DNA from: a virus
Taxonomy: Duplodnaviria; Caudoviricetes
Strand: one strand, 5' to 3'
IMG/VR virus record: IMGVR_UViG_3300008448_000596
Coordinates: 1-24,835 of that record
Length of the DNA: 24,835 bases
Position 1 is the first letter of the stretch. Each line of letters starts with the position of its first letter. Position numbers and translations under genes: made by a program. This document shows, piece after piece, positions 1,072-23,010 of this stretch. The notes under the pieces are model-generated. The model saw only the letters and a program-made list of their open reading frames with translations, searched no databases and had not been told where the DNA came from.

Positions 1072-1473
1072 GCATTCTTTTAACCAATCTTCCGGTATTT
1101 CTTTTTTCGCCCATAGCCAACCTTTCTTATCACAGTATTGAGCGTAGGTTGTTTTACTTCCTTTGTATAACTTTGCATTCGGATTTTGGAATACAAAACG
1201 AATATCTATTCCAGGATATTGTTCAAATATAAGGTCAAACTTTAATCGGTCTGTCTTTATCCATCTACCCTTCGTTTCAACATACATTTTATTGCCAGAC
1301 GTTTTTGTTAGAACAAAATCTGGTGTATAATTGTGTTTAGTTTCAGGTTGTATGTAGGATATTTTTTCAGTTTCATACCCAAATGATTTTTTACTTTCTC
1401 TTAACAAATCATTTACATTGTCTTCTAATCCACTACGAAATCCGTGTTTTATTGCAACTTGATTTCTACGCAT
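1066..1473 (-). CDS. Phage endonuclease I (T7 gp3-like Holliday-junction resolvase)
   Basis: FRSGLE, YTPDFVL, YVETKGRW, DIRFVFQN, LYKGSKTTYAQYCDKKG and IPEDWLKE closely follow T7 endonuclease I motifs (PD-(D/E)xK). Confidence 0.95.
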   Translation of the reverse strand: MRRNQVAIKHGFRSGLEDNVNDLLRESKKSFGYETEKISYIQPETKHNYTPDFVLTKTSGNKMYVETKGRWIKTDRLKFDLIFEQYPGIDIRFVFQNPNAKLYKGSKTTYAQYCDKKGWLWAKKEIPEDWLKECL

Positions 1474-3188
1474 TACATATCAAACCTTACAATGACATTC
1501 ATATCAACATCGTCTCTTTTTTCCAAAGGATTTGCCAATTTAGCAACAGCAAGTAAATTATCATCGTCATCGTATAATCCAACACTTGTTATGTATGGGT
1601 TAAAATATGATGATGTTACATAATTTTCTAAATCGTTTGTATATGCGGCTCTATCAATTCGTATTGATGGATTTTGTGTAAAATTAAATTCACCCCTTCT
1701 GATTTTACAAATTATTTCATATTCATAAAAAGTCGCAGTAGATCTGAATTGTCCTCTGAATCCGTTTGTTATACCATTGTAATCAAAACTTCCAGATTCA
1801 CCTAAAAATGCATTTGCATATTTTGGTCTTGGATCCGATATTACAAAAAATCCAGTTCCATAAAATACATTACCAACTCTTGATGTTTGATATGCATATC
1901 CAGTGTTTAATGAGTTCTCATACAGGTATGGTATTTTTTCTTTTGCAATTCCAGTATTGTATATTCGTATTTCATCCAATGTTCCATGAAAGAAACTTGA
2001 AGTATTTGAACTACCACCAATGAACAATACATTTTCATTTCCAACATCATAGCCCATGGAAGAAGTTACTTCTCCGTTAAGACTTCCATTCAACCATATT
2101 TGATATACACTTCCCGATTTTTGACATACAACATGATACCAAGTATCATTTGCCAATATACTTGATGTAACTTCTATGGTTTGAAATGTAGAACTTTGTC
2201 TAAATGAAAGTTTAGAATTAAAGTTATTATATGATATGTCAAATGGATATTGTGACGATTCCTTTTCAATTTCTTCAAAAGTATGATTTAGTGTATTATC
2301 ATCAACTTTGTAAACTTTTTTTACACTATTTTTGTTAAACAAATAGTTTTTACCTTCAAATCCCGGTGGTTGATCAGATTTTTTATTCATCCAAAAACTA
2401 AATGCAAAATCTTGTTTTTTATTAAAATTTAGATTTACATTTGAATCAACTCTCAAATACGAACCACTAAAATAAGCACCAACACCGGTGGGAGTTGATG
2501 ATCCTGTTATTGGTATACCTGGTACATAAGTAATTTTTTTTGTATTGTATACGCTTACTTTATTTCTATGTGGTGACATATCCAAAACATAGTCTAGTTT
2601 ATTATTTTTTGTATTGTATTCACGGTATTTTTCATTAAAACCAACATACAATAAACAGTTACCAAAATTTACAAATTTATCTTCATCAAATGCCGTATCT
2701 CTTAAATTTCCGGCACTATCATCATTTAATGTATATTCATACGGTGAACCGTAGTTTGATAAACTGACTGAACCTTTTTTTATACCTTCACCGAATACAC
2801 CAACAGGAATCATAAATAATGATGCAGATTCTGCTAAATATGTTATTTGATCATCAGTCGTAATGAATGACGGTTGTTTTTCACTTTTATATTCTGTATA
2901 GTAATTATGATCCAAATAATACCACAAAATTTTTGGATCTAAACTTTGTGTTGTAAAAACTCTTTCGTATAAAGACGATGATATGTTTGCAACATTTCCA
3001 AAATACTTGTGATTTTCTGGATAAAAAGCACGATAAACTTTTATTCCATAGTTGTCCAAATACTCAACTTCTGGCATATACGATGAAAACTTCCAAATTT
3101 TATTAACCTCAAATGGACGAATTGTAAAATCACCCGCCTTCAATCGTTTATGTGTAAAACTTAAATTATTTGCTTTTTGAAATGACAT
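1473..3188 (-). CDS. Putative baseplate/tail-fibre-associated protein with inserted LamG/concanavalin-A-like domain (paralogue 5)
   Basis: LamG-like motifs DFAFSFWM, NDTWYHVVCQK, IWLNG, LFIGG and FHGTLDEIRIYN (about 1910-2660). C-terminal EFNFTQNPS...PYITSVGLYDDDDNLLAVAKLANPLEK is shared with four neighbours. Confidence 0.75.
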   Translation of the reverse strand: MSFQKANNLSFTHKRLKAGDFTIRPFEVNKIWKFSSYMPEVEYLDNYGIKVYRAFYPENHKYFGNVANISSSLYERVFTTQSLDPKILWYYLDHNYYTEYKSEKQPSFITTDDQITYLAESASLFMIPVGVFGEGIKKGSVSLSNYGSPYEYTLNDDSAGNLRDTAFDEDKFVNFGNCLLYVGFNEKYREYNTKNNKLDYVLDMSPHRNKVSVYNTKKITYVPGIPITGSSTPTGVGAYFSGSYLRVDSNVNLNFNKKQDFAFSFWMNKKSDQPPGFEGKNYLFNKNSVKKVYKVDDNTLNHTFEEIEKESSQYPFDISYNNFNSKLSFRQSSTFQTIEVTSSILANDTWYHVVCQKSGSVYQIWLNGSLNGEVTSSMGYDVGNENVLFIGGSSNTSSFFHGTLDEIRIYNTGIAKEKIPYLYENSLNTGYAYQTSRVGNVFYGTGFFVISDPRPKYANAFLGESGSFDYNGITNGFRGQFRSTATFYEYEIICKIRRGEFNFTQNPSIRIDRAAYTNDLENYVTSSYFNPYITSVGLYDDDDNLLAVAKLANPLEKRDDVDMNVIVRFDM

Positions 3189-3189
3189 A

Positions 3190-4470
3190 TCAATTTAACC
3201 TTAATCTAACTTGAATTACGTGTTCTTCATTTGGTTTTTTTCGTATTGGTCTTGGTAGTTTACCAACTGCAACTAGTTCAAAATTATCGTTATACAAACC
3301 AACGGTTGTTATGTATGTTATTGGAAAATCTACAAATGATTCATATTTGAAATGACCATAACTACCAGATAAATAGGTATAGTTGTTACTATAATTAAAT
3401 TCATATTCTTTCAATCTACAAAAGTAAGTTTGTGTTTTAACTTCTTCCGATGCCCTCGCAAACCAAGATCCAGTTACAGTTCTATTTATTGTTGTATTAC
3501 ATGAAGCACTTATAGACATAAAAAACTTTTGTATATTATCACCAACCATTGATGCAGTTACAGTATTTAATGAACACGAATGGTCTAAAACAACACCATC
3601 TAAAACAATTATGCCTTTTTTTGGAAAGATTATACCCCAAGCATCATCAGAATCTTCTCCATATTTTCCATCGTTAAGAGATCCAGAAACCAAATAATAA
3701 TACTCTCGTAATTCCTTTCTTAACGTATTTACATCTGCAAGGTCTTCTGAATCATCTATTAACGTGTAGATTTTATCTGAATTAACGTCTGGATAAAAAT
3801 TACTTCCAGTATTATACAGTTGATTTGCACTTGATGAAATTGGAGCAAGTGTTATTTGTATATTTCCAGGATCAATCATTTCTGGAAAAAGATTTCTATT
3901 AAAATTTATTGCATAAAAATAATCGCCATTTTTTCCATTCTTAAAAGGTATTTTTCCAGTTGTAGAGTGAAAATACTCCATCAGATAATTCTTGTAAATA
4001 ATTTTTGATGGATGTATTTGTGTATGTTGATCTAAATTTTGTAATGAACCAGATCCATTTATATGGCCGTATGTAATATCAAACATAAAATTGTCATCTT
4101 GTTCACCTTCTTTATTAGATAAAACTCTTAAAAAATAATTAGAATCACCAAATGTTGATGAAGTGTGAAATGTGTTTAATTTCTCTCCATCACAGGGGAA
4201 CAATCCTTTTTTTCTATATTTTGTTTGGACAATAGAAAAATCTCTAGGAGTCTTAAACTTTTTGAATGACCTTGATTTTAATGAAGATAATGGAATTGGA
4301 GGTGGTGCAGGTGCAGATTCAGGCCTCTGCATTAAAAATGTAACAACTTCATTATTAGTAACTGCTCGGTATCTATCTTTTGAGGGAAATCCATTTGCAA
4401 TCTGAAAATCGATATACCCCTTTATCATTTCAAGTAGGTATTTATTTATTTCAAAACTTAATACTTTCAT
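3190..4470 (-). CDS. Putative virion structural protein, tandem family paralogue 4
   Basis: Shares FDITYGHINGSGS, YAINFNR...IDPGN, TLIDDS, VSGSL, GIIFPKKGIIVLDG, YFCR...FNYSNN and YITTVGLYNDNFELVAVGKL with the other paralogues. Short unique N-terminus and Pro-rich linker. Confidence 0.75.
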   Translation of the reverse strand: MKVLSFEINKYLLEMIKGYIDFQIANGFPSKDRYRAVTNNEVVTFLMQRPESAPAPPPIPLSSLKSRSFKKFKTPRDFSIVQTKYRKKGLFPCDGEKLNTFHTSSTFGDSNYFLRVLSNKEGEQDDNFMFDITYGHINGSGSLQNLDQHTQIHPSKIIYKNYLMEYFHSTTGKIPFKNGKNGDYFYAINFNRNLFPEMIDPGNIQITLAPISSSANQLYNTGSNFYPDVNSDKIYTLIDDSEDLADVNTLRKELREYYYLVSGSLNDGKYGEDSDDAWGIIFPKKGIIVLDGVVLDHSCSLNTVTASMVGDNIQKFFMSISASCNTTINRTVTGSWFARASEEVKTQTYFCRLKEYEFNYSNNYTYLSGSYGHFKYESFVDFPITYITTVGLYNDNFELVAVGKLPRPIRKKPNEEHVIQVRLRLN

Positions 4471-4471
4471 A

Positions 4472-4915
4472 TTACTCTATCAAAGTTGTTGATAAAATAG
4501 TTGGTATATTTGCAGTAAGTTTGAATAACTCTGCTAATCTTGACCTTTCTTGAATTAAAACTGCTCTTATTTCAGGAGTAACAGCAACACCTGTTGGTGT
4601 TGTCTGCAATGTTTCCGCACCTAAAATAAAAGGAAGTTTTTTTACTTGTTCGGGTAATAAAACATCTGTCAAATTATTCAAATTTGCTAATGCTTGATCT
4701 ATCTTTGACCTTTGTGTTAATGCAAGAGCACTTGGATTGGCATTTATCATTTCATAAAACAAAATAGAATTTACCCCACCGTTTATATCAATATCTAAGA
4801 TTTTCTTGAAAAGATTTAATGCAATTTCACGAGCATTTGATTCATCTAAAACTGCTGGGTAATCACCAAGCATAGATCCAGATAAAGCAGTTATTATTTC
4901 TGATTCTGTTATCAT
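4472..4915 (-). CDS. Hypothetical protein (147 aa, probably helical)
   Basis: Fills the gap between two paralogues with 1-nt spacers on both sides (TAA-C-ATG and TAA-T-ATG). No recognisable motif. Confidence 0.75.
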   Translation of the reverse strand: MITESEIITALSGSMLGDYPAVLDESNAREIALNLFKKILDIDINGGVNSILFYEMINANPSALALTQRSKIDQALANLNNLTDVLLPEQVKKLPFILGAETLQTTPTGVAVTPEIRAVLIQERSRLAELFKLTANIPTILSTTLIE

Positions 4916-4916
4916 G

Positions 4917-7900
4917 TTACCAATTCAAACGAATTTTTATTAAAACATCATTTTCTCTTGATTTTTTGATTGGTTTGCTCAATTTTGCAACAGCAATCAA
5001 TTCTTTTTTAGTATTATACAAACCAACAGTTGTTATGTATGTCATTGGATTGTCTACAAAACAAGCATTTTTTATTCTACCTTTTTCAGTTCCGGTGTCA
5101 ATAGTATATGTTGGATTGTTACTGTAATTTGCCTCGCCGGATGGTATTCTAACAAAGTAATGATTTGTTGTCTTAAATTTAACATTACGAGCACGCATTG
5201 GTTTTCCAACAACAGCTGCACCACTAATTGCAGTAAATAGTTTCCAAGAATTGTCACCTGCAACACCACTACCACTAACGGAATTGAATGAAGCGGATGT
5301 GTTTAATTTACTTCCATCCAATACAACTACGCCTAAATTTGGATATACTTTACCGTAAGTTGTTAAAACAGGATTTGTTTGTAAACTTCCGGTTCCACTT
5401 GAATGAATACCAGCTGATAATGAACCACTAACTATTTCGTATGAGTAAAGAGGATCATCGTTTGCACATACATCTTCATCATCGTATATTGCAGAGTTAT
5501 CAATTAAACTCAATATCATTGGATTTGAACCTGAAACTTTTACACTACTTCCGGTATGAAAATTATTTGAAATACCACTTCCACTTAATTCTGCAATGTT
5601 GATTTCAAAATTACCAATATCTAATTTATCACTTAATCCGTTTCTAAAAAAGTTTATTACATATATGTCATCTGGTGTATTTAATGAACCAGAGTCATAG
5701 AATGAAAAATGCTTTTCATGTGGATCAAGTGCCAATAATCTATATTGGGAGTAAATAGCACGACTTGGACTATCATCCGATTCATAACCACTTGCAATTG
5801 ATCCAGAACCCTTCCAATTACCATAAGCAAGTGCAAAATATGATCTTTCAGAACAATTATCACAATCTGTTACTTCGTAATAATAATCTTTTGAAGCAGG
5901 ATTTTGATTTGATGATGTCAATACGCAATCCAAAGATTGTGACAAATTGAATAAACCCTTGATAGATTTTTTACGCATTCCTGGTAAAATATCAGTTCCA
6001 TATAAAAATGGATGGTGTAATCTACCAATTCCTGATCCCTCGAAACAATCTACTTTTTGTCTACGATTATCTGTTAATTGTTGTCCAATGGTTAAACCAT
6101 AAGAACCAGCAGGAGATGTTGGATCTGGAGCTGGAAATGCAGGATCTAAAATTTCTTGTGCAGGAAATTCATATTTTGTACCAGACAGAGGATCAATGTA
6201 TGTTATCGCATCATATACTAAATAGTGAGTTAATACCTCAACTTCATCACAACCACATGGGTTATCTAAATCAACTCTAAAAGTTGAGACAACTCTTTTC
6301 TTTGGAATACAGTTTATACTTTGTTTTCTTTGAACAGATGAATAACTTGAAAAATATACACCCGGTTCACCTGAAAATCTTGGTACAATAGGAACCATTT
6401 CATCAACAGTTGTATAATAATATCCATCTACTGTTGTTAAAAGTTTACCGTTTAGATCAGTTGAAGCATTAGAACCTGGTCTTGCCAAATAACTTGTTAT
6501 CCACTTGTTTACCTCTGTTCCAGGAGTTCTATAATCTATTTCTACTCTACCAACACCTGGTTTATTACAAAATATCTTAAACGGAACTCTTTTTTGTCTT
6601 TTAATTCCCCATTGATAATCGCTTTTAATACCCTCTAAACATGGTTGTCCTGGTATTTCTGTAACCAAATTTGATGTAGAATTTTTCATCGGTGTTAAAC
6701 CATTTTGCAATAGTTTAATAAATTCAGGAGAATTTCTATCACCGCGCAATACATCAATAATGTTTCCAGTAACTTCACCACCACTAGTTTCGGTTATCAA
6801 ACTGCGTATTGCCTCTGGATAAAAAGATTCTTTTGGATTTTGATAATCAGCAACATATTCCCACATAAATCCACGAACTGATGCGGATTCTTCATAATAC
6901 GGTGCAGAACAATCTACTGATTTTGCAATCTTGAACTTCCAAGATATTTTGCCGTAATATGGATTTTTTGTATCAATAGTCTCACCATATTCATCACCGG
7001 CTATTAAAACAGGTGTATCACCTGGTCCATCAGTTATTATATCAGTTGGTGTAATTGGGGGATTTGGATTAGGAACAATTCCTTTATTTTCTACTATATC
7101 AGTTATTCTCGATGAAACTAATGAAGTAATTCCAGAATCAGGTTTATCGGTTTGTGGTAAATCTGCTTGAACTGTTGTGCTAGTTTTTATATCAGTATAT
7201 TGTAATGAACCGTAATCACTTCCACCCATAAAGAAGAAGTTTTCCATTACATTCATTTCTTCTTGTGATGTGGCATCATTATACCATTTTATAGATTGAA
7301 CACCGGTTGCATAATCTCTTATGGCCTGTGATAAGGTTGTGATGAATCCAGTTGGTGGTGGACCTGGCTTATAGAATGATTCTTGTCTTCCCATTCCAGG
7401 AGTTGCACCCATTGTGGGACCGTAATTATCAACAAAACATTTTTCATTTTCATCTATAAGTTGATATTTTATATTTTCATATACAGTTTGTTGAACATTG
7501 TTTAACTGAATAGATACTATTTCATTGTATATCTTATCAATAATACTTTTCATATCATAGTGATATGAGTATGTTATTTTACCAACAGATTTATTTTGTG
7601 AATCTCTTGGTTGTATTACAAGATTTCCTTCGGAATTTGGAGTTATATTGTAATAGATATTTGGAGTTACCGTTGTAGTAAACAATTCGGTTGGGGGTGT
7701 ATTAAAACAAGCAGCAAACATTGTTATTTGCAATGTTGGTGCACTTTTTATTCTAAATCCAAAAAACGATTTAGTAGCAGGTTGTAATGGATCTGATGTT
7801 TGTCTTATTCTAAAACTGTATTTTGGTTTTGTACATCCACCAACATTCACTCTTTTACCAACATTTGTTGGTGCTGCGGTTATTCCACCTGAAGCACTTG

Positions 7901-8420
7901 ATTGTCCTGCACCACCTTGCACCAATCCTCTCGCAGATCTATAAATAACTGCACTTGGTTGCATTGAAGTATTCCAATTTAACGGCTGTCCTGATGGTGT
8001 GTATTCTGGAATAATTTCATCAGCAGTTCCATCATTATCAGTATCTCTACCAACATACCAAATTGGTTGTAAACCATTTAAGTATACGGATGGTGTTTTG
8101 CCATTAAAAGGTTGGTTTTGATTTGGTTCATTAAACCAATTTACATATGGTTTAAGTGCATTTGTTTCTTGTAAATATGATCTATAAAGCTTAAATATGT
8201 AACCAAAATTAGAAATAACATCACGCAATCTGCTATTATTGACCAAAACTTCATCATTCATTGAAAATTGCGGATCTTCAAGAATAGCATTTATATTCTC
8301 AATTTCTTTGTCTATAAAATCTATCGTTGATATTATTTTATTTAGATCCTTTTCTCGTATTCCGTTCATTCCTTGATTTATCATTGAAACCAAAAATGAA
8401 CCCAAGATTTCGATATTCAT
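4917..8420 (-). CDS. Large putative virion protein, tandem family paralogue 3 with ~815-aa unique N-terminal extension
   Basis: C-terminal ~350 aa aligns by eye with the 377-aa and 370-aa proteins (DYYYEV, PSRAIYSQY, GNFEINIAELSGSG, YGKVYP, GDNSWKLFTAISGAA, YITTVGLY...AVAKLSKPIKKS). Upstream TAAGGA. Confidence 0.8.
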   Translation of the reverse strand: MNIEILGSFLVSMINQGMNGIREKDLNKIISTIDFIDKEIENINAILEDPQFSMNDEVLVNNSRLRDVISNFGYIFKLYRSYLQETNALKPYVNWFNEPNQNQPFNGKTPSVYLNGLQPIWYVGRDTDNDGTADEIIPEYTPSGQPLNWNTSMQPSAVIYRSARGLVQGGAGQSSASGGITAAPTNVGKRVNVGGCTKPKYSFRIRQTSDPLQPATKSFFGFRIKSAPTLQITMFAACFNTPPTELFTTTVTPNIYYNITPNSEGNLVIQPRDSQNKSVGKITYSYHYDMKSIIDKIYNEIVSIQLNNVQQTVYENIKYQLIDENEKCFVDNYGPTMGATPGMGRQESFYKPGPPPTGFITTLSQAIRDYATGVQSIKWYNDATSQEEMNVMENFFFMGGSDYGSLQYTDIKTSTTVQADLPQTDKPDSGITSLVSSRITDIVENKGIVPNPNPPITPTDIITDGPGDTPVLIAGDEYGETIDTKNPYYGKISWKFKIAKSVDCSAPYYEESASVRGFMWEYVADYQNPKESFYPEAIRSLITETSGGEVTGNIIDVLRGDRNSPEFIKLLQNGLTPMKNSTSNLVTEIPGQPCLEGIKSDYQWGIKRQKRVPFKIFCNKPGVGRVEIDYRTPGTEVNKWITSYLARPGSNASTDLNGKLLTTVDGYYYTTVDEMVPIVPRFSGEPGVYFSSYSSVQRKQSINCIPKKRVVSTFRVDLDNPCGCDEVEVLTHYLVYDAITYIDPLSGTKYEFPAQEILDPAFPAPDPTSPAGSYGLTIGQQLTDNRRQKVDCFEGSGIGRLHHPFLYGTDILPGMRKKSIKGLFNLSQSLDCVLTSSNQNPASKDYYYEVTDCDNCSERSYFALAYGNWKGSGSIASGYESDDSPSRAIYSQYRLLALDPHEKHFSFYDSGSLNTPDDIYVINFFRNGLSDKLDIGNFEINIAELSGSGISNNFHTGSSVKVSGSNPMILSLIDNSAIYDDEDVCANDDPLYSYEIVSGSLSAGIHSSGTGSLQTNPVLTTYGKVYPNLGVVVLDGSKLNTSASFNSVSGSGVAGDNSWKLFTAISGAAVVGKPMRARNVKFKTTNHYFVRIPSGEANYSNNPTYTIDTGTEKGRIKNACFVDNPMTYITTVGLYNTKKELIAVAKLSKPIKKSRENDVLIKIRLNW

Positions 8421-8431
8421 GTGAATTTTCC

Positions 8432-9535
8432 TTAATAGTCAAGTTTTACTTTAACAACCACTTCTCTGTCAAAAGACTTTTGTATTGGTTTACTCAATTT
8501 CGCAACCGCAACAAGATTGTTTGAATCGTCATACAAACCAATACTTGTGATATAAACTTTTGGATCCATAATCATACTTTCGTATTTTAATACGTTATTT
8601 TGATTGAAGAAACTTGGGTTATTGGTATAGTTGTATTCATCGGAATAAACTCTTACAAAATAATATGTTGATGCAACAACTTCACTCGTTCTTCCTTGAA
8701 ATGAATATGAAGCAGTATTATATTGCATTGCACCACTTATTGATGTGAAAAGTCTGTATGCACTATTATCACCAAAAAGACTTCCAGTATAATTTTCTGT
8801 TGCACTCGTTACTCTACTTCTTGTAGTATAAAATGAAGCAGATGCGTCTAATGCCTTACCATTTAATACTATAATGCCATGGTCTGGATAATAAAGTCCC
8901 CAAGGAGTTGATGCATAAGAACCAGTATACTTTCCGTCTGATAATGTTCCACTAACAACATTGTAAACCCTTCCACCTTGAACCGTCAATTCTGTTGTTG
9001 TTACTCCAGAATCATCAATTAGGGTTATTACATCGGAGGGAGAAGATATACTACTACTTCCAAGCGAGTTTAATTTAGATAAAGAAAGTTGCCATGTACT
9101 TGTGTCCATTCTATCTTTATATCTTGAACGATTGACATTTACAACATAAATATATTCTGATGTTTCAGATACAGTTCCATTTGTAAACTCAAATGCATTT
9201 ATTCCAGTTGATAACAACATTTGTCTATATTGAGAATAAATTGCCTGAGTTGGGTAATCATAGTCTTGTGCACCATAAGATCCAGTAGAAGAACCACTAC
9301 CTTTTGAATCACCGTAAGTTACACTAAACTGAACTTCTGCACTTGGAAAATTTGATTGACTGTTGTAAACTTCATAAAAATATCTCTTTGTTCCATCGGA
9401 TTGATCGGATGAAGTAAACGAGGTAAAAAGAGCAACATTATTTCCAGACCATAGTGGAGCCGTAACTAATTCTCTACGATTTCTTCCTATTGCATCGTTG
9501 GAAAATCTTTTTAATACAAAGGGTGTTGTAGCCAT
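8432..9535 (-). CDS. Putative virion structural protein, tandem family paralogue 2 (core only)
   Basis: QFSVTYG..GSGS, AIYSQYR, TLIDDSG, GLYYPDHGIIVLNG, YYFVR...YNYTNNPSF and YITSIGLYDDSNNLVAVAKLSKPIQKS. Likely start is ATG 9535 (MATTPF); the track gives TTG 9544. Confidence 0.8.
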   Translation of the reverse strand: MATTPFVLKRFSNDAIGRNRRELVTAPLWSGNNVALFTSFTSSDQSDGTKRYFYEVYNSQSNFPSAEVQFSVTYGDSKGSGSSTGSYGAQDYDYPTQAIYSQYRQMLLSTGINAFEFTNGTVSETSEYIYVVNVNRSRYKDRMDTSTWQLSLSKLNSLGSSSISSPSDVITLIDDSGVTTTELTVQGGRVYNVVSGTLSDGKYTGSYASTPWGLYYPDHGIIVLNGKALDASASFYTTRSRVTSATENYTGSLFGDNSAYRLFTSISGAMQYNTASYSFQGRTSEVVASTYYFVRVYSDEYNYTNNPSFFNQNNVLKYESMIMDPKVYITSIGLYDDSNNLVAVAKLSKPIQKSFDREVVVKVKLDY

Positions 9536-9540
9536 AACAA

Positions 9541-10674
9541 TCAATACTCCAATTTTATAGTAACTGATAACTCACTTGTAAATGATTTTTTAATTGGTTT
9601 ACTCAATTTTGCAATAGCAAGTAAACTTTGATTTCCATTTATATCCGGACCATAAAGACCAATGGATGTAATATATGTTGTTGGATTGTCTATGAATCTA
9701 CTATTCTTAATTAACCCTTTATCATTACCATCTGAATATGTCCATGTTGGATTACTGGAGTAATTACATGAAAAATTATTTATTCTACAATAATAATACG
9801 AACAATGTTTAACATCAATAGCTCTAGCAGTAAAACCATACTCACCAACTGATGCTGCACCACTAATTGCAGTAAATAATTTGTAAGAATTATCACCATC
9901 AATGTTACTACCAGTTACAGTATTAAATGATGAAGAATGATTTAGTGCCTTAGCGGATATTAAAATTATACCCTGACTTGGATATACTTTACCATAGTAA
10001 TGTCTGTTTGCATTTGAATAAATTCCATTTTGTAAACTACCACTAACTAAATTTCTTACATAAGAAGTTTGAGAAACATTTTCTATCAAGTCGGAAGAAT
10101 CACCAGAATCATCTATCAATGTTATTAGTCCACCACCAGATTTTACTTGAACATTACTGCCAGTATGGACATTATTTGCCTTACCACTTCCAGAAAGTTC
10201 TGCGAAATTTATTTCAAAATTTCCTGGATCCATTTTATCACCAAATTTATCTCTGTTTATGTTTATTACATAAAAATCTTCAAGAGGATCTGTTGATCCT
10301 GATAGATAAAATCCATGTTCATCACCATCTAAACATATCAATTTATATTGAGAATAAACTGCTCTTGATGGTGTGTCATTTGCCTCACCACCTTCATTCA
10401 TTGATCCAGAACCACTAACATGACCATATGTTACCGAGAACATACGCTCTTCTTCACAAGAAAGAGAAGCAGAGCCCCAAACTTCATAATAGTAATCTTG
10501 TGAAGCAGATGTTTGTGTAGAACTTGTAAAAAATGTAAGCAATTCTCCAGTTCCCGTTGCCCATAAACCTCTTGCTGTTCCAGTTGTTGTTGGTGCAGGT
10601 TGTATAGGTGGAAATTGAATAAAATATGATGGAAAACCTGATCCGTTAAAATATCCTGGTCTTTCTTCTTCCAT
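9541..10674 (-). CDS. Putative virion structural protein, tandem family paralogue 1
   Basis: Same core motifs (FSVTYGHVSGSGS, PSRAVYSQY, MDPGNFEINFAELSGSG, YGKVYP, YITSIGLY...AIAKLSKPIKKS). GAGG ribosome-binding site upstream. Confidence 0.8.
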   Translation of the reverse strand: MEEERPGYFNGSGFPSYFIQFPPIQPAPTTTGTARGLWATGTGELLTFFTSSTQTSASQDYYYEVWGSASLSCEEERMFSVTYGHVSGSGSMNEGGEANDTPSRAVYSQYKLICLDGDEHGFYLSGSTDPLEDFYVININRDKFGDKMDPGNFEINFAELSGSGKANNVHTGSNVQVKSGGGLITLIDDSGDSSDLIENVSQTSYVRNLVSGSLQNGIYSNANRHYYGKVYPSQGIILISAKALNHSSSFNTVTGSNIDGDNSYKLFTAISGAASVGEYGFTARAIDVKHCSYYYCRINNFSCNYSSNPTWTYSDGNDKGLIKNSRFIDNPTTYITSIGLYGPDINGNQSLLAIAKLSKPIKKSFTSELSVTIKLEY

Positions 10675-10711
10675 GTCTAACCTCTATAACTAAATTGTTT
10701 GATAATATGAA

Positions 10712-11404
10712 TTATACGTTATTACTAAATGAAATTGGCACAACAAAACGTGAACCATATCTTGTATTTGTAATAATCATTTTTGTTGATTTTCCATCAA
10801 GAGTTGTTGGCAACCATGAACCATTTATACCAATAACAAAATCAAGTCTTGGAACTACATCACTTGTTGTATTCCATGTTTTTGATTTACCAGACATTGG
10901 AAGTTCTGTAACACCAACGCCACCTGTACTCAATACTGTAAAGTATGTTGTATCTAAAATAGTAAATGTATACCCACCTGGATTTTCTACAATTACATTT
11001 GGACCATTACCGGTACTTGACCACTGTTTCAACTCAAAAGTTAAATTAGGTTTAGACTGTGCAGTAAGATTTCTTCCACCACCTGATTCGGTTAGTGTAA
11101 GAGAACTTGGAGTAGATTCGATATAAGGTATTGATTTTGTTCCTTCGGACAAAGTAATCAATTTATATTTCATTGATTGTGTTTCATCTGGAACTGCTTC
11201 TGTAATTGGTAAATTTTCAATTACAATACCCATCTTGTCATCACCAAGTGGATGACTTTGATTCCACAAATCATAATCAATTTCATCATCAGCAAGAGCA
11301 AATTGTGTAATGTTAAAAGAAGATGCTCCCTTTGCCAAAAGTTCTCTACCTTTTTTTGTAAGAATTGCGTCTACTGTAACTGTTGCGTTATTTAAGTAAC
11401 CCAT
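10712..11404 (-). CDS. Putative baseplate/tail-collar-like structural protein
   Basis: N-terminal VDAILTKKGRELLAKG..FNITQFALADDEIDY resembles the first half of the phage tail-collar fibre domain (DUF3751/PF12571: 'ilT..G...la....it.fa.gDg'). AAGGAG SD at 11412-11417. Follows the gp7-like gene. Confidence 0.6.
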   Translation of the reverse strand: MGYLNNATVTVDAILTKKGRELLAKGASSFNITQFALADDEIDYDLWNQSHPLGDDKMGIVIENLPITEAVPDETQSMKYKLITLSEGTKSIPYIESTPSSLTLTESGGGRNLTAQSKPNLTFELKQWSSTGNGPNVIVENPGGYTFTILDTTYFTVLSTGGVGVTELPMSGKSKTWNTTSDVVPRLDFVIGINGSWLPTTLDGKSTKMIITNTRYGSRFVVPISFSNNV

Positions 11405-11439
11405 GTTAAAACTCCTTGTTAGAAAATTAGTTGTATACT

Positions 11440-11470
11440 ACTATAAATATAATCATTATTCAAAAATACA
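11440..11470 (-). promoter_or_regulatory. Candidate internal (late?) promoter in the largest intergenic gap
   Basis: The 77-bp AT-rich gap 11405-11481 has minus-strand TATATTTATAG (11451-11441) and a TAnnTTTG match (TATTTTTG, 11468-11461) without a well-spaced TTG. Such motifs can arise by chance at this AT content. Confidence 0.3.
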
Positions 11471-11481
11471 AAATTATTTTA

Positions 11482-14400
11482 TTATTGTCTTTTTCTACGA
11501 ACTTGTTGTAACCACTCTGGTAATACATCAAATGGAAGAATCAAAAGTATGACAGCACTTGGATCATTGTTCACATCTAAATATGTATAGTTTGGTGTAT
11601 ACATTGGATATGATATTTTATTAGTAACGTCACCACCTGGTAATTTACACCCTTCAAATCGTATATTTCTGACGGATTTTGTGTAATTGTTCATATTCAT
11701 TTGACTTGATGTTACATATTGATATGAAGCATAGTTAGAACTGTCTGAATTTAACGATGATGAATAGTAAAAATAATACGATTTGTAAAAATTATCGTGT
11801 CTATTTTTATCAATCATTGTATAAACTGCAGTTTTTTTATCATAATGATTGGATGCGGTATACCAAGTTTTAGTAGCACCAACGGAACTACCATGTATGT
11901 AGTTATTACGGTCAAATGAATTTGTAAATCCTAAATCTAAACTTCCATATACATCAAGTATTGTGTTATTTTTACCAATTACTTTTCTTATATTTTTAAT
12001 GTTTAATACAAAATCATAGTTGTTATTGATAATTCCTGAAAAGTCTTTTATTTTTGAATCTAGCAATCCAAACTTATCAACAACATTACCAATTATTTCT
12101 CTCGGTCTAGAATAAATACTTGATGTTGTTGCAGAAGCAACCCCAATAAATGTTGTATTTATATTTATATCATCTTCATAATTTTGTGTATCGGATTCTA
12201 TTGTTGTTTCAACATCAAACTCACCTTGAACATTTGTAAATTCACTTGCAATATCTTCATCAAATCCAATAAAAACTGTTGTTGTTTTTGAAGAATTTAT
12301 ATTTCCAGTAATAACTGCTGATGCAGAAATTTCAGTTGTATCTCTAACAAATTTTTCAGGTGGAAGTCCACCAAAATCTCTTGATGTTTTTACTTTAGAT
12401 CTTTCAAGTATATTTGGTTCAATAACAACACCAAGTATTTCATTTGTTCTTAATGGTAAAGTTTGACGAATTTGATCAAATACACTAAAATCAAAAAGTG
12501 AAACTAATCGAAGATATGCGGTAAAGTCATTTCTTGTTGTATATTTTTTCCAATACTCTCTTGCGAATTTTTTTAATGCAGGGTATTCATCTTTTTTTGT
12601 ATTTGAGTATTCTCCCAAATAATCATCAAGTTGGGTATTTCCTATTGCCTCGTATATGTCTTCATTTATTACGTGTTGTGGTGAAAATGCAACCATTAAC
12701 TTATTTGAATCTATTGAAAATTTATCAAATGCAGTAATAACCGAAGATTCATCTTTTAACAATGCACCTTGTAATGATGCAGAATCTATTCTAATTTTTT
12801 CTGTAAATGGTGTGTTATTTCCAATAGTTGCAACTTCCATATTGTAAACTTCAACCGTAGACTCAAATGAATCTCTTGTAAATTGATTGAAATATGCATT
12901 TTTTGAAGAAGTGGAAAAAGTAGACTTTGTTTGATCTGGATGCATACTTTTTATACTGGATGTATACTCAGCATTAAAAGGTTGCCAAAACTTCCATTGT
13001 GCCTGTAGATCATAGAATGATGATGTTGGTGTATTACCATTGTAAGCACGTGCAGATAAAACATGATTATCAAATGAAGATGTAATTAACTGTTTTGCCC
13101 AATATCTTAATTCAAATATGGAACCGGACAATAAATAATTTGTTTGTGGGTTTGAACCAGAACCTATAAACAAATATCCATCAGAAGACCAACCTCTATT
13201 GTAATCAGATTCAGTTGATCCATTTATACTTATACTTGCACTTCTATCAACTGCTATTTTTCCATACTTTGAAGTTTTTAATATAAAATCATAAGTTTGA
13301 TTTACTGATGTATTATCCGATGATGTGTTTCTACGAATCATTATGTTCAATGGAATATCATCATAAAGATATTCGTCTTTAATTGATGCAGACTTGTAGT
13401 TTGTTCCATCGCCCAAATAAAATGTTAAATCTCCTTTTTCAGCAGAACCAGTTCTGTTAATTGTAACAAACCAATCACGTCTATTTCCCGCGGTTTCTTT
13501 TTGTAATACTGTTTGTATTTTATTATTTGCATAGTCATAGTATTCAGATGCATTCATCTTCCAACGAAATGTAATTGTATCTGGATATTGCCAATTATTA
13601 TTTTCATTATTTATCGTTTCCCACGGAACACGAACATAACTTGATGTAGCAGGTTGTTGTAAACTTCCAACAAAGTTCAAATAATATGTATGTTTTTCCC
13701 ATTCAGCTCTTGGAATAACACCTAAATCTGCATTGTCAGGTCCGCCAAATTCTCTTATAGATAAAAGTGTTTGTGGAATACCGTATGTTGCAAGTAGTGC
13801 CTTTACTCCTCTAGCAGTTCCTTTTGATTTGTAAATATATGGGAGATTGTTTAATACTCTCCTCCATACTTCTTTCGTTCTTTCTTCTTCACTTTTTGAA
13901 TAGTTTTTACCAACCGTTGTTTTACCAGTCCAGAGTGGTTCACCGCTCCCACTCAACCCAAGTGCATATTCCCAAAGATCTTTTGTTTTTGTTCCACTTG
14001 ATAATGTCCATCCTAAATTTCTTGTTGCTTCATATATCAAATCTTGGGATAACCCGTCTTTTGGGTGTTCTTCTCTTAAATTCTTTTTTAATATATGGTC
14101 TGTGTAGAAATACAATATGTCAAAATGCTGACCTATCATATTAACAAATGTTAGTATCTGCTCATTATCAGGATTTTCATAGATGTGAGTTGGTAAGGAT
14201 TTTACAAGTGCAGAATCATTAACCATATCATAGTCGGTTGCCAAATCAAGTATATTATTATACCAAGTTTGAACTTCATCACTTCCGGATGCATATAAAT
14301 TAAATTTACCTTGTTTGGTAATTAAATTGTAAGAACTTCCAGTAACTTCATATTTTGGAAATGGTTGAATTGATGCAGTTAGTTCTGATGTATACCTCAA

Positions 14401-15516
14401 ACTTGCAGAAGTTTCGTAGTATAACCATTTTTCAAAATTATCAAAACCAGAAACAACCTTATCTCTCAACATTTTTACTCTTGTTTTGTTACTTTCAAGA
14501 GAACCGGTGTATACTTCTAAATTACTTAATTCTTCATTGTATGTTTGTATTAAGCGTATTTTATAGTAAAAATTTTCAATTCTTTCTTCAGCAGATGAAT
14601 AGAATACAAAGTTATCGAATGATGTATAATCAAAATTCAATTCTACACTTGATCCAGAAACATTTACATACTTATCCAAAATTTGTTGGGATGTTTGTAA
14701 ATTTGTTGATAACAAATCATTCCAATTTTTATATTCAGTTGTTCCAGTAATAAATCTATCATACTCTACTTCAAAATTTGGACCTTTAATAAATTTTGGT
14801 TGTAGTTTTTCAAATTCTTTTTCCACTTGAACATTGTCCAAGTAAGGTTTCATTATTTGACTTGCAACCCAACATTGATAATATAAATCAACATCAAATG
14901 GTAAAGGTTCTGCCAATCTAACATAAAAATATGAAGGATCACCGTCAGACGTTACATTGACAACATCTACTAAATTATTTTCACCAAAATTTATTACAAT
15001 AGGAAGTTTGTATTTAGAACCCCTCATATATTCAATTACAAAATCATGTAATTCTATTATAGAGTTAGAATCTGTTGGGTTTGTCAATGTTAGTCGAAGT
15101 TCTTTTCTGTCACTTGATATATCTGAAACAAACAATCTATTTTCGGTATTATTTCCACCAATAAGATTTCTTAAAAAATTGTAAACAACCCTATATGGTC
15201 CCGGAACTAAATTTAATTGAGCTATGTGATCATGTATTGGTAAAATTACGTATCGTATTGGTTCACCAAGTTCATTTACTCTTGGATCTATATTATAGTT
15301 AGCAAGATATAATGTATTTACATAAGCAGCATTTGGCAAAAATACATGAAATTCTACATTTGTTCCAGGAGATGAAGGATCTTCAGGGTTATTCAATCTA
15401 GAAAATTTAGGAACAACAATTTTACTGTTCAGATTTGAATAGATAAATCTATTGCCTCTAATTGGATTATTAGTGGCAAGAATATCAGAAAGGTTTTTGT
15501 ATAAAAAATTTGGCAT
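11482..15516 (-). CDS. Large baseplate wedge protein (T4 gp7/P2 gpI-like) with LamG-like insertion
   Basis: RRVLNNLPYIYKSKGTARGVKALLATYGIP is the 'YK.KGT..g' motif of gp7/gpI-type wedge proteins (about 13780-13865). FVNMIGQHFD precedes it. LamG-like segment TITFRWK...LFIGSG...SGSIFELRYW. Downstream of the gp25- and gp6-like genes. Confidence 0.7.
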   Translation of the reverse strand: MPNFLYKNLSDILATNNPIRGNRFIYSNLNSKIVVPKFSRLNNPEDPSSPGTNVEFHVFLPNAAYVNTLYLANYNIDPRVNELGEPIRYVILPIHDHIAQLNLVPGPYRVVYNFLRNLIGGNNTENRLFVSDISSDRKELRLTLTNPTDSNSIIELHDFVIEYMRGSKYKLPIVINFGENNLVDVVNVTSDGDPSYFYVRLAEPLPFDVDLYYQCWVASQIMKPYLDNVQVEKEFEKLQPKFIKGPNFEVEYDRFITGTTEYKNWNDLLSTNLQTSQQILDKYVNVSGSSVELNFDYTSFDNFVFYSSAEERIENFYYKIRLIQTYNEELSNLEVYTGSLESNKTRVKMLRDKVVSGFDNFEKWLYYETSASLRYTSELTASIQPFPKYEVTGSSYNLITKQGKFNLYASGSDEVQTWYNNILDLATDYDMVNDSALVKSLPTHIYENPDNEQILTFVNMIGQHFDILYFYTDHILKKNLREEHPKDGLSQDLIYEATRNLGWTLSSGTKTKDLWEYALGLSGSGEPLWTGKTTVGKNYSKSEEERTKEVWRRVLNNLPYIYKSKGTARGVKALLATYGIPQTLLSIREFGGPDNADLGVIPRAEWEKHTYYLNFVGSLQQPATSSYVRVPWETINNENNNWQYPDTITFRWKMNASEYYDYANNKIQTVLQKETAGNRRDWFVTINRTGSAEKGDLTFYLGDGTNYKSASIKDEYLYDDIPLNIMIRRNTSSDNTSVNQTYDFILKTSKYGKIAVDRSASISINGSTESDYNRGWSSDGYLFIGSGSNPQTNYLLSGSIFELRYWAKQLITSSFDNHVLSARAYNGNTPTSSFYDLQAQWKFWQPFNAEYTSSIKSMHPDQTKSTFSTSSKNAYFNQFTRDSFESTVEVYNMEVATIGNNTPFTEKIRIDSASLQGALLKDESSVITAFDKFSIDSNKLMVAFSPQHVINEDIYEAIGNTQLDDYLGEYSNTKKDEYPALKKFAREYWKKYTTRNDFTAYLRLVSLFDFSVFDQIRQTLPLRTNEILGVVIEPNILERSKVKTSRDFGGLPPEKFVRDTTEISASAVITGNINSSKTTTVFIGFDEDIASEFTNVQGEFDVETTIESDTQNYEDDININTTFIGVASATTSSIYSRPREIIGNVVDKFGLLDSKIKDFSGIINNNYDFVLNIKNIRKVIGKNNTILDVYGSLDLGFTNSFDRNNYIHGSSVGATKTWYTASNHYDKKTAVYTMIDKNRHDNFYKSYYFYYSSSLNSDSSNYASYQYVTSSQMNMNNYTKSVRNIRFEGCKLPGGDVTNKISYPMYTPNYTYLDVNNDPSAVILLILPFDVLPEWLQQVRRKRQ

Positions 15517-15543
15517 ATAAAACTATCACTTATTTAAGGGTTA

Positions 15544-16341
15544 TTAACCTTCACCCGAAACACCGGATGTTCCAGATGTTCCGGCGGTTCCGGCGGTTCC
15601 AAAATAATCATTTTTTATTAAATCAGACATTCTACTTAAACCAAATTGATTTTCTGAAACAAAATCTGATTTGAAATTCTTCAATGAATCAACATCTTTT
15701 GCCAATGAATCAAGTGTTTCACTTGTTCTTTCAGCCATTGCATTAAGTATATTTTCTGTTCTTATCTTATCAGTTTCTATTCTAGTTGTCAAATCTGTAA
15801 GTATTTGTTCTTGTTGTGCTGACAATTCTGTATTCATTCTTTCCATTGCATCTGCACGAATTGATTGGTTTTCATATTGGTCTGCCCAAATATCAATTCT
15901 TTGTTGCCATCTTATTTCATTTGTAGCCCAATCAGCCAATTCATTATTTTGTCTTTCAACTAAATCTTCAAGATCTCTTATTTTTTTGTTAAGACTTTCT
16001 ATTGAATTTGGATTATTTTCTGCAATGTTTTGTAGATTTTGTAACAATTCATTTTTTGCAATACTTTGTATGTTCTCCATATCAGAAGGACTTAAATTTC
16101 CAATAGGAACACCTCGTAACAAACCTGTTTGTATCGTTTCAATTTGATTAAAAACATTTTTTTCTGCATCAGCTGCTTCTTTTAATGAAGAAAATTTTGT
16201 TTTAACTATAAAATCAAAATCATTTGCTAAAAATCTTTCATCAACAACTGGTAGTTCAATTCTTCCTTTGTTTTCCGAAGACCTTTCATCCAAATAACTT
16301 ATTATTCTATTTGAAATACTATCTCTTAAAAGTTCATTCAT
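15544..16341 (-). CDS. Hypothetical coiled-coil protein with short C-terminal Gly-X-Y tail
   Basis: Heptad-like E/Q/N/L-rich segment (IESLNKKIRDLEDLVERQNNEL...), ends GTAGTAGTSGTSGVSGEG. ATGA overlap with the upstream gene. Confidence 0.8.
   Translation of the reverse strand: MNELLRDSISNRIISYLDERSSENKGRIELPVVDERFLANDFDFIVKTKFSSLKEAADAEKNVFNQIETIQTGLLRGVPIGNLSPSDMENIQSIAKNELLQNLQNIAENNPNSIESLNKKIRDLEDLVERQNNELADWATNEIRWQQRIDIWADQYENQSIRADAMERMNTELSAQQEQILTDLTTRIETDKIRTENILNAMAERTSETLDSLAKDVDSLKNFKSDFVSENQFGLSRMSDLIKNDYFGTAGTAGTSGTSGVSGEG
15554..15600. repeat. GC-rich imperfect 9-bp tandem repeat encoding Gly-Thr-Ala/Ser
   Basis: Units cccgaaaca, ccggatgtt, ccagatgtt, ccggcggtt, ccggcggtt on the plus strand. 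Confidence 0.8.
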
Positions 16342-17513
16342 CGAGTAACCTTAAAGTAATGATTATTGTCAAAAATTTGAACGTTATCCCCACCATCTCT
16401 TTCAACTTTAATTACAACTCTATAAAATCTTTCTGGTTGAAATGAATCCATCCAAAGATTAAAGTAACTGCTTGTTCCATCACAACTAATTTTTGTTCCA
16501 TTTTCATCAAATGGAAGTATTACTTCATCACTATGTGCATCACGTATTTCGTAATATGATGATGACGGTAAATAATGATTTACAGTTTGATATGCAGTTG
16601 TTGTATAATTTTTTTCTGGATATCGGGAATATGCATATATTTTAATTTTTGCTCTTTCTTTTTCAGCATAAAATTTTTTAAGTTTAACATTTATATTCAA
16701 ATTATCTTCTGATGCAGGTGATAAACTTCCTGTAATAAATTCGGAATCATCCCATACAATGTTCAATCTTGGAACATATATTGTATTACTATCAGTTCCA
16801 AAAAATTTCAAACTGTTTATGAGATTATCTGGCGAACTTTCTATTTCATTACTAAATTTTAGAATCATTCCATCATTTTCAAACCTTCCAGATCCAGTTA
16901 CCCATCTTCTAGCGATATTAGTAACATCCATATAAATATCTGTTGATTGGAATGAAAATGATTGTGTACATTCTAAATTATCGTAATCCCACCATGTTCC
17001 ACCACCTTCATGTGTAAAATATGAAGATGTAACATTTGCAGAAAGATTCACGCCAAACAATATATTAGCATCAACCCATGTCTGTGATAAACTATCCCAT
17101 TCATAATTTGAAATAGTTGGTGGAATATCCCATTCGGTTGCAACTCTTTTTGATGTTCTATAACGCCAGGAGACACCATCAGTTGTATATGGTAAGTTTG
17201 TAAATTTACCAGTTCCGTTTGTCCAAGAAGAACTCAAAGGATATGCATATACAACATATTCTTGTGGAATTTCTCTTATATCGGCAGTAATAAGAGAAAG
17301 ATAGTATTTTGCATTTTGAGATATTTTACCAGAGTTAATTCTACTTTCAATATCAGACATATCAAATTTCAAAAGTATTCTACTATTGTAAATAGATGAA
17401 CCAGATCCAGGAGTCTCGTGTGATAACTCCAACAAAGGATCTATACCAGTATTCATTGTATACTGTCTTTCGTAAATTGTTGCATCTCTGTTTGCAAAAA
17501 TAGAATATATCAT
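16338..17513 (-). CDS. Virion-associated protein with DNRLRE-like beta-sandwich domain
   Basis: NRDATIYE...NTGIDPLLEL...SRILLKFDMSDI, YPLSSSWTNGTG, MDVTNIARRW, NDGMILK and PRLNIVW resemble the DNRLRE-domain pattern. ATGA-coupled to the gp6-like gene. Confidence 0.55.
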   Translation of the reverse strand: MIYSIFANRDATIYERQYTMNTGIDPLLELSHETPGSGSSIYNSRILLKFDMSDIESRINSGKISQNAKYYLSLITADIREIPQEYVVYAYPLSSSWTNGTGKFTNLPYTTDGVSWRYRTSKRVATEWDIPPTISNYEWDSLSQTWVDANILFGVNLSANVTSSYFTHEGGGTWWDYDNLECTQSFSFQSTDIYMDVTNIARRWVTGSGRFENDGMILKFSNEIESSPDNLINSLKFFGTDSNTIYVPRLNIVWDDSEFITGSLSPASEDNLNINVKLKKFYAEKERAKIKIYAYSRYPEKNYTTTAYQTVNHYLPSSSYYEIRDAHSDEVILPFDENGTKISCDGTSSYFNLWMDSFQPERFYRVVIKVERDGGDNVQIFDNNHYFKVTR

Positions 17514-19399: not shown

Positions 19400-19407
19400 G
19401 TTATATC

Positions 19408-19923
19408 TCACCTATAATTGTTTGGTTGTATTGCGGCAATTTCTATTCCACCAGTAACAGATATAAATATCCTAATAGGTAAATATATCGTTGTTTCTCT
19501 AACTTTAACCGTAAAATCTATCTTTATTGCATGATCATTTTCTGCTAATTCCGAAACATTTGGACTTATATCAACTGTTAATTTTTCTAATGTTAGATAT
19601 GGCAGCCATTCCTTAAATGCATCTGCAATGTCATTTTTAATCGTTTCTACAAAAGTTTCTTCACTTGTGATATTTTCAAATAAAATATATCTTAAATTTG
19701 TTCCAAAATCAGGTAGCATATATCGCTCACCCTTTGAAGTCAATAAAAGATTTCTGATGTTTGAATATATCTGTTGTTGATTAGTTAAACTTTGATAAAA
19801 TATACCACGTGGATTATTAAATGGTAAAGTTACACCAACAAATTTATTACCAGTAATAACACTTCCTTCATTTACTGGTCTTGTGTAATACTGCCATCTA
19901 TTTCTGCCAAGTCTTTTTTCCAA
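19408..19923 (-). CDS. Baseplate wedge subunit gp25/GPW-like
   Basis: NIRNLLLTSKGERYMLPDFGTNLRYILFE and WLPYL are hallmark gp25 motifs. Directly upstream of the gp6-like gene. TTG start is uncertain. Confidence 0.92.
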   Translation of the reverse strand: MEKRLGRNRWQYYTRPVNEGSVITGNKFVGVTLPFNNPRGIFYQSLTNQQQIYSNIRNLLLTSKGERYMLPDFGTNLRYILFENITSEETFVETIKNDIADAFKEWLPYLTLEKLTVDISPNVSELAENDHAIKIDFTVKVRETTIYLPIRIFISVTGGIEIAAIQPNNYR

Positions 19924-22980: not shown

Positions 22981-23010
22981 ATTATTTCTCTCTGTTAAGT
23001 TTTATGTTAA

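Follow-up and report, generated by a model that had tools for sequence, protein, structure and literature searches.

Among tailed phages, some mycobacteriophages are described as having glycosylated virions, with the glycans at the C-termini of capsid and tube proteins. Later papers report of Che8 and Rita (Freeman et al. 2023) that phage glycosyltransferases (GTs) were proposed or shown to glycosylate virion proteins as a shield (PMC11256854, PMC12619734, PMC12582341). The GmaR domain is described as adding N-acetylglucosamine (GlcNAc) to flagellin (PMC9638930), and GtfA and GtfB, encoded by tandem GT genes, as a two-protein complex that O-glycosylates Ser/Thr of serine-rich repeat adhesins (PMC6973325). 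Here we analyze a 24,835-base virus record (IMGVR_UViG_3300008448_000596), the whole of which we call the window, and a tripeptide, [S/T]-[G/A/S]-S, concentrated in seven neighboring proteins of its predicted baseplate module. This motif probably marks, as a sequon, the sites at which phage-encoded enzymes would O-glycosylate the virion; we infer its chemistry, acceptor residue and function.

Motif enrichment in the window

All 17 real open reading frames (ORFs) of the window lie on the minus strand. Seven neighboring proteins hold 81 copies of the motif against 18.2 expected, about 4.5 times chance, and the remaining ten ORFs hold 7 against 9.2. With lengths in amino acids (aa) and expected counts in brackets, these are the 571-aa protein (1473..3188) with 10 copies (1.7), the 426-aa protein (3190..4470) with 9 (1.0), the 1167-aa protein (4917..8420) with 12 (3.9), the 370-aa protein (8432..9544) with 8 (3.3), the 377-aa protein (9541..10674) with 11 (2.8), the 1344-aa protein (11482..15516) with 24 (3.8) and the 391-aa protein (16338..17513) with 7 (1.7). 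Whole-protein shuffles reached the observed count 39 times in 2000 for the 370-aa and 3 times for the 391-aa protein, and never for the other five. In 30-residue local shuffles the corresponding numbers were 0 for the 571-, 426-, 377- and 1344-aa proteins, 3 for the 1167-aa, 4 for the 391-aa and 121 for the 370-aa protein, which alone is not significant because 121 of 2000 local shuffles reach its count.

Composition was thus rejected as the source of the excess by both kinds of shuffle, the 370-aa protein alone excepted. A DNA repeat or codon artefact was rejected as well: the copies use 55 distinct 9-nucleotide spellings, with the final Ser encoded 53 times by TCN and 28 times by AGY. An unbiased tripeptide ranking over all 17 ORFs placed SGS, TGS, TSS, GSL and SAS at the top, and SGS, TGS, TSS and GSL passed Bonferroni correction for 8000 tripeptides. 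Of the tripeptides counted for the original prediction, made from the sequence before this analysis, TAS (5 against 2.7 expected) and SSS (8 against 6.8) are not enriched in this window. The N-linked sequon N-x-[S/T] is not enriched in the seven proteins (57 against 62 expected), nor is the Bacteroidota-type pattern D-[S/T]-[A/I/L/V/M/T] (7 against 16.1), which we took from the original prediction and from which the motif had rightly been set apart.

The manual counts made for that prediction were exact for all seven proteins, and the shuffle comparison it proposed gave an excess in each, the 370-aa protein alone failing the local version. Its restriction of the motif to a subset of proteins also holds (0 in the primase and the 230-aa protein, 2 each in the 633-, 870- and 607-aa proteins), as does the split of the 1167-aa protein, where residues 1-815 carry 2 motifs (1.8 expected) and the remainder 10 (2.3 expected), these 10 lying in the C-terminal paralog core at residues 835-1049. 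The hydrophobic flank was confirmed too: the residue at -1 or +3 is hydrophobic at 68 of 81 sites, compared with 45.6 expected.

A C-terminal segment of about 80 aa is common to five tandem genes (1473-10674), four of which also have in common a core of about 350 aa; no Pfam, PHROG or PDB match was found for the core. The 426-, 370- and 377-aa proteins are assigned to this core by paralogy, and the 571-aa protein joins the C-terminus of the family to a LamG domain (Pfam Laminin_G_3, E 1e-14). The family comprises 4,144 clusters at E<=1e-10, with one copy in RM378, two in immuto_2-6A (immuto), five in the window, six in the complete 177-kb genome G001 and five in tandem in Mel-JY01, like the window. 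Since the 38 motif instances of the four cores map to only 20 alignment columns, paralogy inflates the motif count. As a sole cause it was rejected, as the original prediction had argued: the 391-aa, 1344-aa and LamG proteins, the capsid and the sheath are unrelated to the paralog core.

A primase, a T7-like endonuclease I and gp25-like and gp6-like baseplate proteins are recognized in the window (Pfam, PHROG). Eleven of the 17 window proteins are 44-70% identical to proteins of Mel-JY01, in the same gene order. Judged by its genes, the window comes from a relative of the myophages Mel-JY01, immuto and RM378 and represents its baseplate module; it has this module and the gene order in common with their clade. 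The 370-aa protein matches 7 of 50,697 phage records, namely Mel-JY01, four immuto records, LR756508.1 and RM378. For its fold there was no Foldseek match at E<=0.001 and no PDB sequence match, and the ESM Atlas gave only unnamed viral clusters.

The 171-aa gp25-like wedge protein (19408..19923; Pfam GPW_gp25), with 0 motifs, anchors the module as baseplate, and the 633-aa gp6-like wedge protein (17510..19411; PHROG 219, E 1e-23) serves as an internal negative control with 2 motifs against 1.0 expected. Directly after the latter comes the 391-aa protein, presumably a baseplate component, as is the 1344-aa protein, placed there by position and having neither a family nor a structure match. From their position after gp25 and gp6 the seven motif-rich proteins are likely virion proteins, in all likelihood tail parts. 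Of the labels proposed earlier, LamG and gp6-like found support in Pfam and PHROG, gp7-like and CHAP found none, and DNRLRE-like fell to a sub-threshold CBM96 match of the 391-aa protein (E 0.0075). The conserved 230-aa module protein (10712..11404) is rich in Ser, Thr and Gly yet has 0 motifs, a negative control inside the module. The 265-aa protein (15544-16341), also with 0 motifs, ends in a short G-T-A/G-T-S repeat resembling the long SGT repeats of a Mel-JY01 fiber. At 20368-24834, an 870-aa protein and a 5'-open protein that is leucine-rich repeat-like vary greatly among close relatives (49-68% identity, G002-G004) and lack a motif excess.

The motif on virion proteins of relatives

In immuto, Mel-JY01 and G001 the motif is in excess on sheath, fiber-like, baseplate, neck or capsid proteins, and no excess was found on their portal, terminase, tape measure, tube or large enzymes. 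Tail tubes of relatives hold 0-1 motifs; a single fiber holds up to 60 copies. Across eight relatives, six 'exterior' orthologs reach 2.6-3.7 times expectation and six 'interior' ones 0.2-1.2 times, a division whose weight is lessened by our having chosen it after inspecting immuto and Mel-JY01. The capsid set comprised 68 major capsid proteins, 63 of them full-length sequences taken from 80 loci and the other 5 references, without dereplication. Of their 292 motifs, 265 fall within the insertion region, where 99 are expected, and 27 outside it, where 54 are expected. This region aligns to residues 132-232 of T4 gp23, whose I domain is described as forming capsid surface protrusions (PMC9546572). 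A metagenome search returned 59 full-length proteins of the 391-aa family, each with at least 4 motifs.

As controls we used 40-50 kb structural stretches of other phages. Counts were 46 against 40.7 expected in T4 (16 from one antisense ORF; [ST]GS 6 against 12), 24 against 26.5 in SP-15, 45 against 48.4 in HSE3, 47 against 34.1 in PA5oct ([ST]GS 11 against 10.2) and 54 against 61.8 in the P-SSM2 baseplate region. None of these stretches has an [ST]GS excess.

Sequence specificity and site turnover

For specificity we used 44 orthologs of the 391-aa and 1344-aa proteins, dereplicated at 70% and thus related sequences, not independent ones. They contain 307 [ST]GS against 48 expected, while near-variants occur at chance: [ST]GT 37 against 37, [ST]GN 31 against 34, NGS 25 against 19 and DGS 14 against 15.5. 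At position +3, 63% of residues are hydrophobic compared with a background of 34%, Pro occurs 2 times against 27 expected and Asp/Glu 21 times against 74.

The sites move. In the 391-aa family 181 motifs are spread over 64 alignment columns, of which 3 are used by at least half of 22 sequences, and in the 1344-aa family 474 motifs over 189 columns, of which 10 are so used; both column counts are inflated by misalignment at 25-35% identity. In the rarely used columns alone, T-x-S still occurs at 2.3-2.4 times the whole-protein expectation and the reverse S-x-T at 0.8-0.9 times. Specificity, turnover between positions and confinement to the capsid protrusion together support the selected surface motif that the original prediction had proposed.

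These results bear on two alternatives. One is a structural preference, whereby small hydroxyl residues around Gly or Ala would form turns and caps in beta-rich fiber and baseplate proteins and be inherited via paralogy, with the GTs acting elsewhere. Such a preference would explain why the 370-aa model (predicted local distance difference test, pLDDT, 79) has 14 of 16 motif Ser/Thr in coil compared with 42 of 72 other Ser/Thr, why several sites are invariant and why 18 of the 38 core instances are redundant through paralogy. It does not account for the need for an ordered triplet, with the four near-variants at chance, for motifs at shifting positions on LamG, capsid insertion, sheath and neck proteins, or for the lack of excess in the structural stretches of T4, SP-15, HSE3 and PA5oct; we regard it as unlikely. 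The other is docking: the virion would display short linear motifs to be bound by a decoration protein, as the original prediction suggested, or by a chaperone. Hydrophobic flanks and the exclusion of Pro at +3 would suit an extended peptide lying in a groove, as docking supposes, yet up to 60 copies run along a single fiber and the folds are unrelated. Because the motif occurs on unrelated folds and fibers at shifting positions, we disfavor docking and give it very little chance.

Candidate glycosyltransferases of the clade

A Pfam search found no GT in the 24.8-kb window, and we assume the GT genes of the window phage from its relatives. Seven near-complete relatives have 41 families in common, four of which are GTs (GT-A, GT-B, GT-C and GT-D; gp181, gp180, gp178 and gp169 in immuto), in a set of which some genomes were found through their GTs. 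Among near-complete records found via structural genes, GT-B is present in 4 of 4 (G001, G022, G041, G042). GT-A and GT-B are GT4-like and form a tandem pair, GT-C is a GT2 of 207 aa and GT-D a second GT2. The 7 of 50,697 phage records that GT-A matches are those matched by the 370-aa family; GT-B follows GT-A in 74 of 80 loci (2 after a gap), and the remaining 6 loci end at GT-A. The GT-A of Mel-JY01 (PP395634.1) is broken into two ORFs, 190 and 302 aa long (L033:33441-34932).

The best of three controls scored 0.00, whereas the GT-A:GT-B complex model scored 0.85. With our own alignments, roughly 116 of the 157 solved pairs reached that mark, as did 2 of the 215 mismatched ones. At least 97% of contacts recur between runs, and partner pLDDT is at least 90. 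The models support a predicted heterodimer of GT-A and GT-B, whose interface would use GT-A residues 472-478. By both sequence and fold, the best solved match of either protein is chlorovirus B736L at about 15% identity, followed by generic GT4 enzymes for small molecules and lipopolysaccharide (LPS). GT-C, a GT2 catalytic domain with an invariant DADE motif, matches GmaR best among solved structures (E 1e-12, full length), with SunS third (6e-6).

Could these enzymes act on DNA or on host surface polysaccharide, their co-occurrence with the motif reflecting clade ancestry alone? The generic GT4 matches below B736L would fit, an alteration of host polysaccharide by phage GT clusters has been suggested (PMC7824862), and there is one clade with one loss. 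Against this, section 17 of the immuto preprint lists only dA, dC, dT and fdPreQ1 from the DNA of this one phage, with no glycosylated nucleoside, although minor peaks could escape (bioRxiv 2023.04.13.536721), GT-C is closest to a protein-directed GT, and B736L is presented as a putative capsid-glycan enzyme (PMC4691112). We hold this alternative, too, to be highly improbable.

A further alternative keeps the motif as a real modification site and assigns it to another enzyme, either a host transferase or a phage kinase, acyl- or methyltransferase. Specificity and surface placement suit any modifying enzyme, many of the 41 core families are hypothetical, and methyl- and acetyltransferases sit within the GT clusters. 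Yet the motif is shared although the stated hosts differ (Flavobacterium, Microcystis, Rhodothermus), neither D-[ST]-[AILVMT] nor N-x-[ST] is enriched, none of the core families carries a kinase annotation, and what the relative LR756508.1 clearly lacks is three GTs. This we judge less likely again than a structural preference. The recorded host of Mel-JY01 (PP395634.1), the closest cultured relative, is cyanobacterial, and other members infect Flavobacterium and Rhodothermus; the host range of the clade looks unusually wide, or one host label needs checking.

Outside the clade the GT pair was found neither in the 50,697-record set nor from RM378 GT-A; it may occur in unrelated phages, since the IMG/VR scan gave the best 80 of 564. 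Strong GT-B matches in prokaryote genomes (L310-L337) all lie on bin contigs of scattered taxa, and the two contigs read fully (G032:C1, G033:C1) both have phage structural modules. Weak GT-B relatives (22-26%; L338-L344) come from bins of Acidobacteriota and Verrucomicrobia, where most of them lie on long contigs. The 248-kb phage contig G032:C1, from a bacterial bin, carries all four GTs and an excess of PSP, PTP and SPS (154 against 16, 151 against 18 and 140 against 24), a mucin-like pattern that is possibly another acceptor. Multi-domain GT and methyltransferase genes lie amid motif-rich fiber genes (G003:C1:3396-8155, L032:4750-8430), and the Mel-JY01 multi-domain gene joins GT4, TibC-like and GT9 parts.

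Sparse motifs and missing glycosyltransferases in a jumbo relative

LR756508.1 (484 kb, searched in full) keeps the baseplate module and GT-A and lacks GT-B, GT-C and GT-D. Its GT-A, alone among 11, ends about 15 residues early and lacks the strand by which, in the model, GT-A contacts GT-B. Motif density in its module is 0.46 per 100 aa compared with 1.2-2.3 in immuto, Mel-JY01, G001 and L001-L027; its capsid has a single motif, which lies outside the insertion region, and of its two sheath proteins one has 1 motif and the other 0. The jumbo-lineage ortholog keeps 0 of the 9 common columns of the 391-aa family, which a structural preference would not predict, and 2 of the 22 of the 1344-aa family. 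Among the other core families, weak or doubtful matches in LR756508.1 are limited to PhoH, the tape measure and an 841-aa protein, a point against docking. As to the original proposal of a GT cluster co-occurring with the motif, the window holds none, while the relatives have four core GTs, three of them absent, along with most motifs, from LR756508.1.

A tree built from capsid and sheath places LR756508.1 as sister to the eight genomes with a strong motif (support 95; the eight themselves 63), and RM378 and G032 branch outside it (supports 95 and 79). Because these two bear GTs, the GT loss in LR756508.1 is secondary. Genome-wide, RM378 has 2.72 times the expected [ST]GS, with 61 T-x-S against 30 S-x-T; G032 is weak (1.64 times; 152 against 144) and LR756508.1 lowest (1.41 times; 123 against 129). 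No second GT-B-negative lineage was found via a jumbo-lineage search, which yielded three short 94%-identical contigs and one 19%-complete record (G052), via the GT-A of that lineage or in metagenomes. At 145763-208426 LR756508.1 also has a tandem pair of sheath genes, each for 824 aa, and a portal ORF that at 1386 aa is about twice as long as usual; its scaffold carries 9 motifs, several of them in Ser runs.

Proposed pathway and its weighing

We propose that phage enzymes recognize an extended [S/T]-[G/A/S]-S-hydrophobic peptide, attach an O-linked sugar and then extend it. The stand-alone GmaR-like GT-C would be the best candidate for adding the first sugar, and the putative GT-A/GT-B heterodimer and GT-D would extend the glycan; alternatively, the GT4 pair may prime, as in GtfA/GtfB. 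Lineage-specific sugar genes nearby may vary the outer glycan. For the acceptor we lean slightly towards the invariant third Ser. The glycan could shield the virion from proteases, adsorption or grazers, or tune host attachment. Phage-encoded O-glycosylation, as originally predicted, thus draws circumstantial support from four core GTs, a GmaR-like GT2 and one co-loss; the window without a GT and the weak motif in two GT-bearing relatives pull the other way. We see about an even chance for the fuller picture, in which a sequon-directed O-glycosylation pathway of its own operates in a large aquatic clade that is mostly uncultured and has thousands of protein clusters. A GmaR-like primer and a GT4 heterodimer would then read the motif, thousands of glycans would coat the virion exterior, sites would be gained and lost as in a viral glycan shield, and the system would decay upon enzyme loss.

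Several observations weigh against a sequon. Some sites of the 370-aa protein are near-invariant (positions 44 and 83 in 119 of 119, 235 in 118 and 198 in 111), and sites 83 and 198 persist in GT-poor LR756508.1, as a structural preference would allow. Mapping onto predicted structure, proposed originally with exposed turns in mind, came out mixed: the motif residues of the 370-aa protein, including most of its 8 motifs, fall mainly in predicted coil or loops, and the site at position 198 falls in a predicted strand. T-x-S over S-x-T is reversed genome-wide in Mel-JY01 (100 against 157) and weak in immuto (103 against 89). In P-SSM2 the fiber region has 76 motifs against 50.2 expected, and one fiber, without this GT set, has 20 against 7.7 from SGSGS repeats, an excess that again favors a structural preference.

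Exterior ratios are 1.46 in RM378 (GT-A, B and C; 5 of 6 orthologs found) and 1.29 in G032 (all four GTs; 4 of 6 found), below the 2.0 of LR756508.1 (14 against 7.0). With RM378 and G032 branching outside and weak in the motif, the strong motif may postdate the LR756508.1 split. The nearest relatives, G002-G005, which are 29-44% complete, gave no GT-B match. The GT set and motif are confined to one clade with a single loss lineage, and the virion location of the seven motif-rich proteins is read solely from gene position. We found no mass spectrometry or glycan stain of such virions in the literature, nor, outside subscription journals, a paper on the motif or on glycosylated virions of the clade; passages of PMC13419713 and PMC12014285 gave nothing of relevance.

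If the sequon reading is true, soluble phage enzymes read a short transferable sequon, and in an abundant aquatic clade glycosylated virion surfaces would become predictable from sequence. The sequon would also single out those products of hypothetical genes that face outward, and it would offer a compact tag for O-glycoengineering. Since immuto_2-6A, Mel-JY01 and RM378 are cultured, it is directly testable.

Comparison with known systems

Chloroviruses resemble the clade in virus-encoded coat glycosylation, with B736L the top match for GT-A and GT-B; their glycans are described as N-linked on Asn without a common sequence pattern, and the role of B736L as unconfirmed (PMC4691112). The likeness of GT-C to the Listeria protein GmaR extends over the whole length of the catalytic domain and includes a DxD-type motif, which places GT-C with that domain. 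At 207 aa, however, GT-C stands alone, without the tetratricopeptide repeat and antirepressor domains of GmaR. Against the peptide S-glycosyltransferase SunS it scores 20 bits, where the SunS cut-off is 350 bits.

The GT4 pair resembles GtfA/GtfB in its tandem genes and in the predicted complex. It differs in having no DUF1975 match, only a weak GtfA match (E 0.005) and no accessory Sec system, and it does not belong to that system. GtfB is a chaperone, whereas clade GT-B keeps an E-x7-E motif in G001, G032 and G033, though not in RM378, and may be catalytic.

With the mycobacteriophages the clade would have in common phage-encoded GTs and, putatively, virion glycans. Mycobacteriophage GTs did not turn up in the phage searches with clade GTs, none of which was a direct homology search between the two. 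Where mycobacteriophage glycans are reported at the C-termini of capsid and tail tube (PMC12619734), the candidate sites here are internal and share a sequon. Unlike modification at a tube C-terminus, the clade motif spans capsid, sheath, neck, baseplate and fibers and nearly spares the tube.

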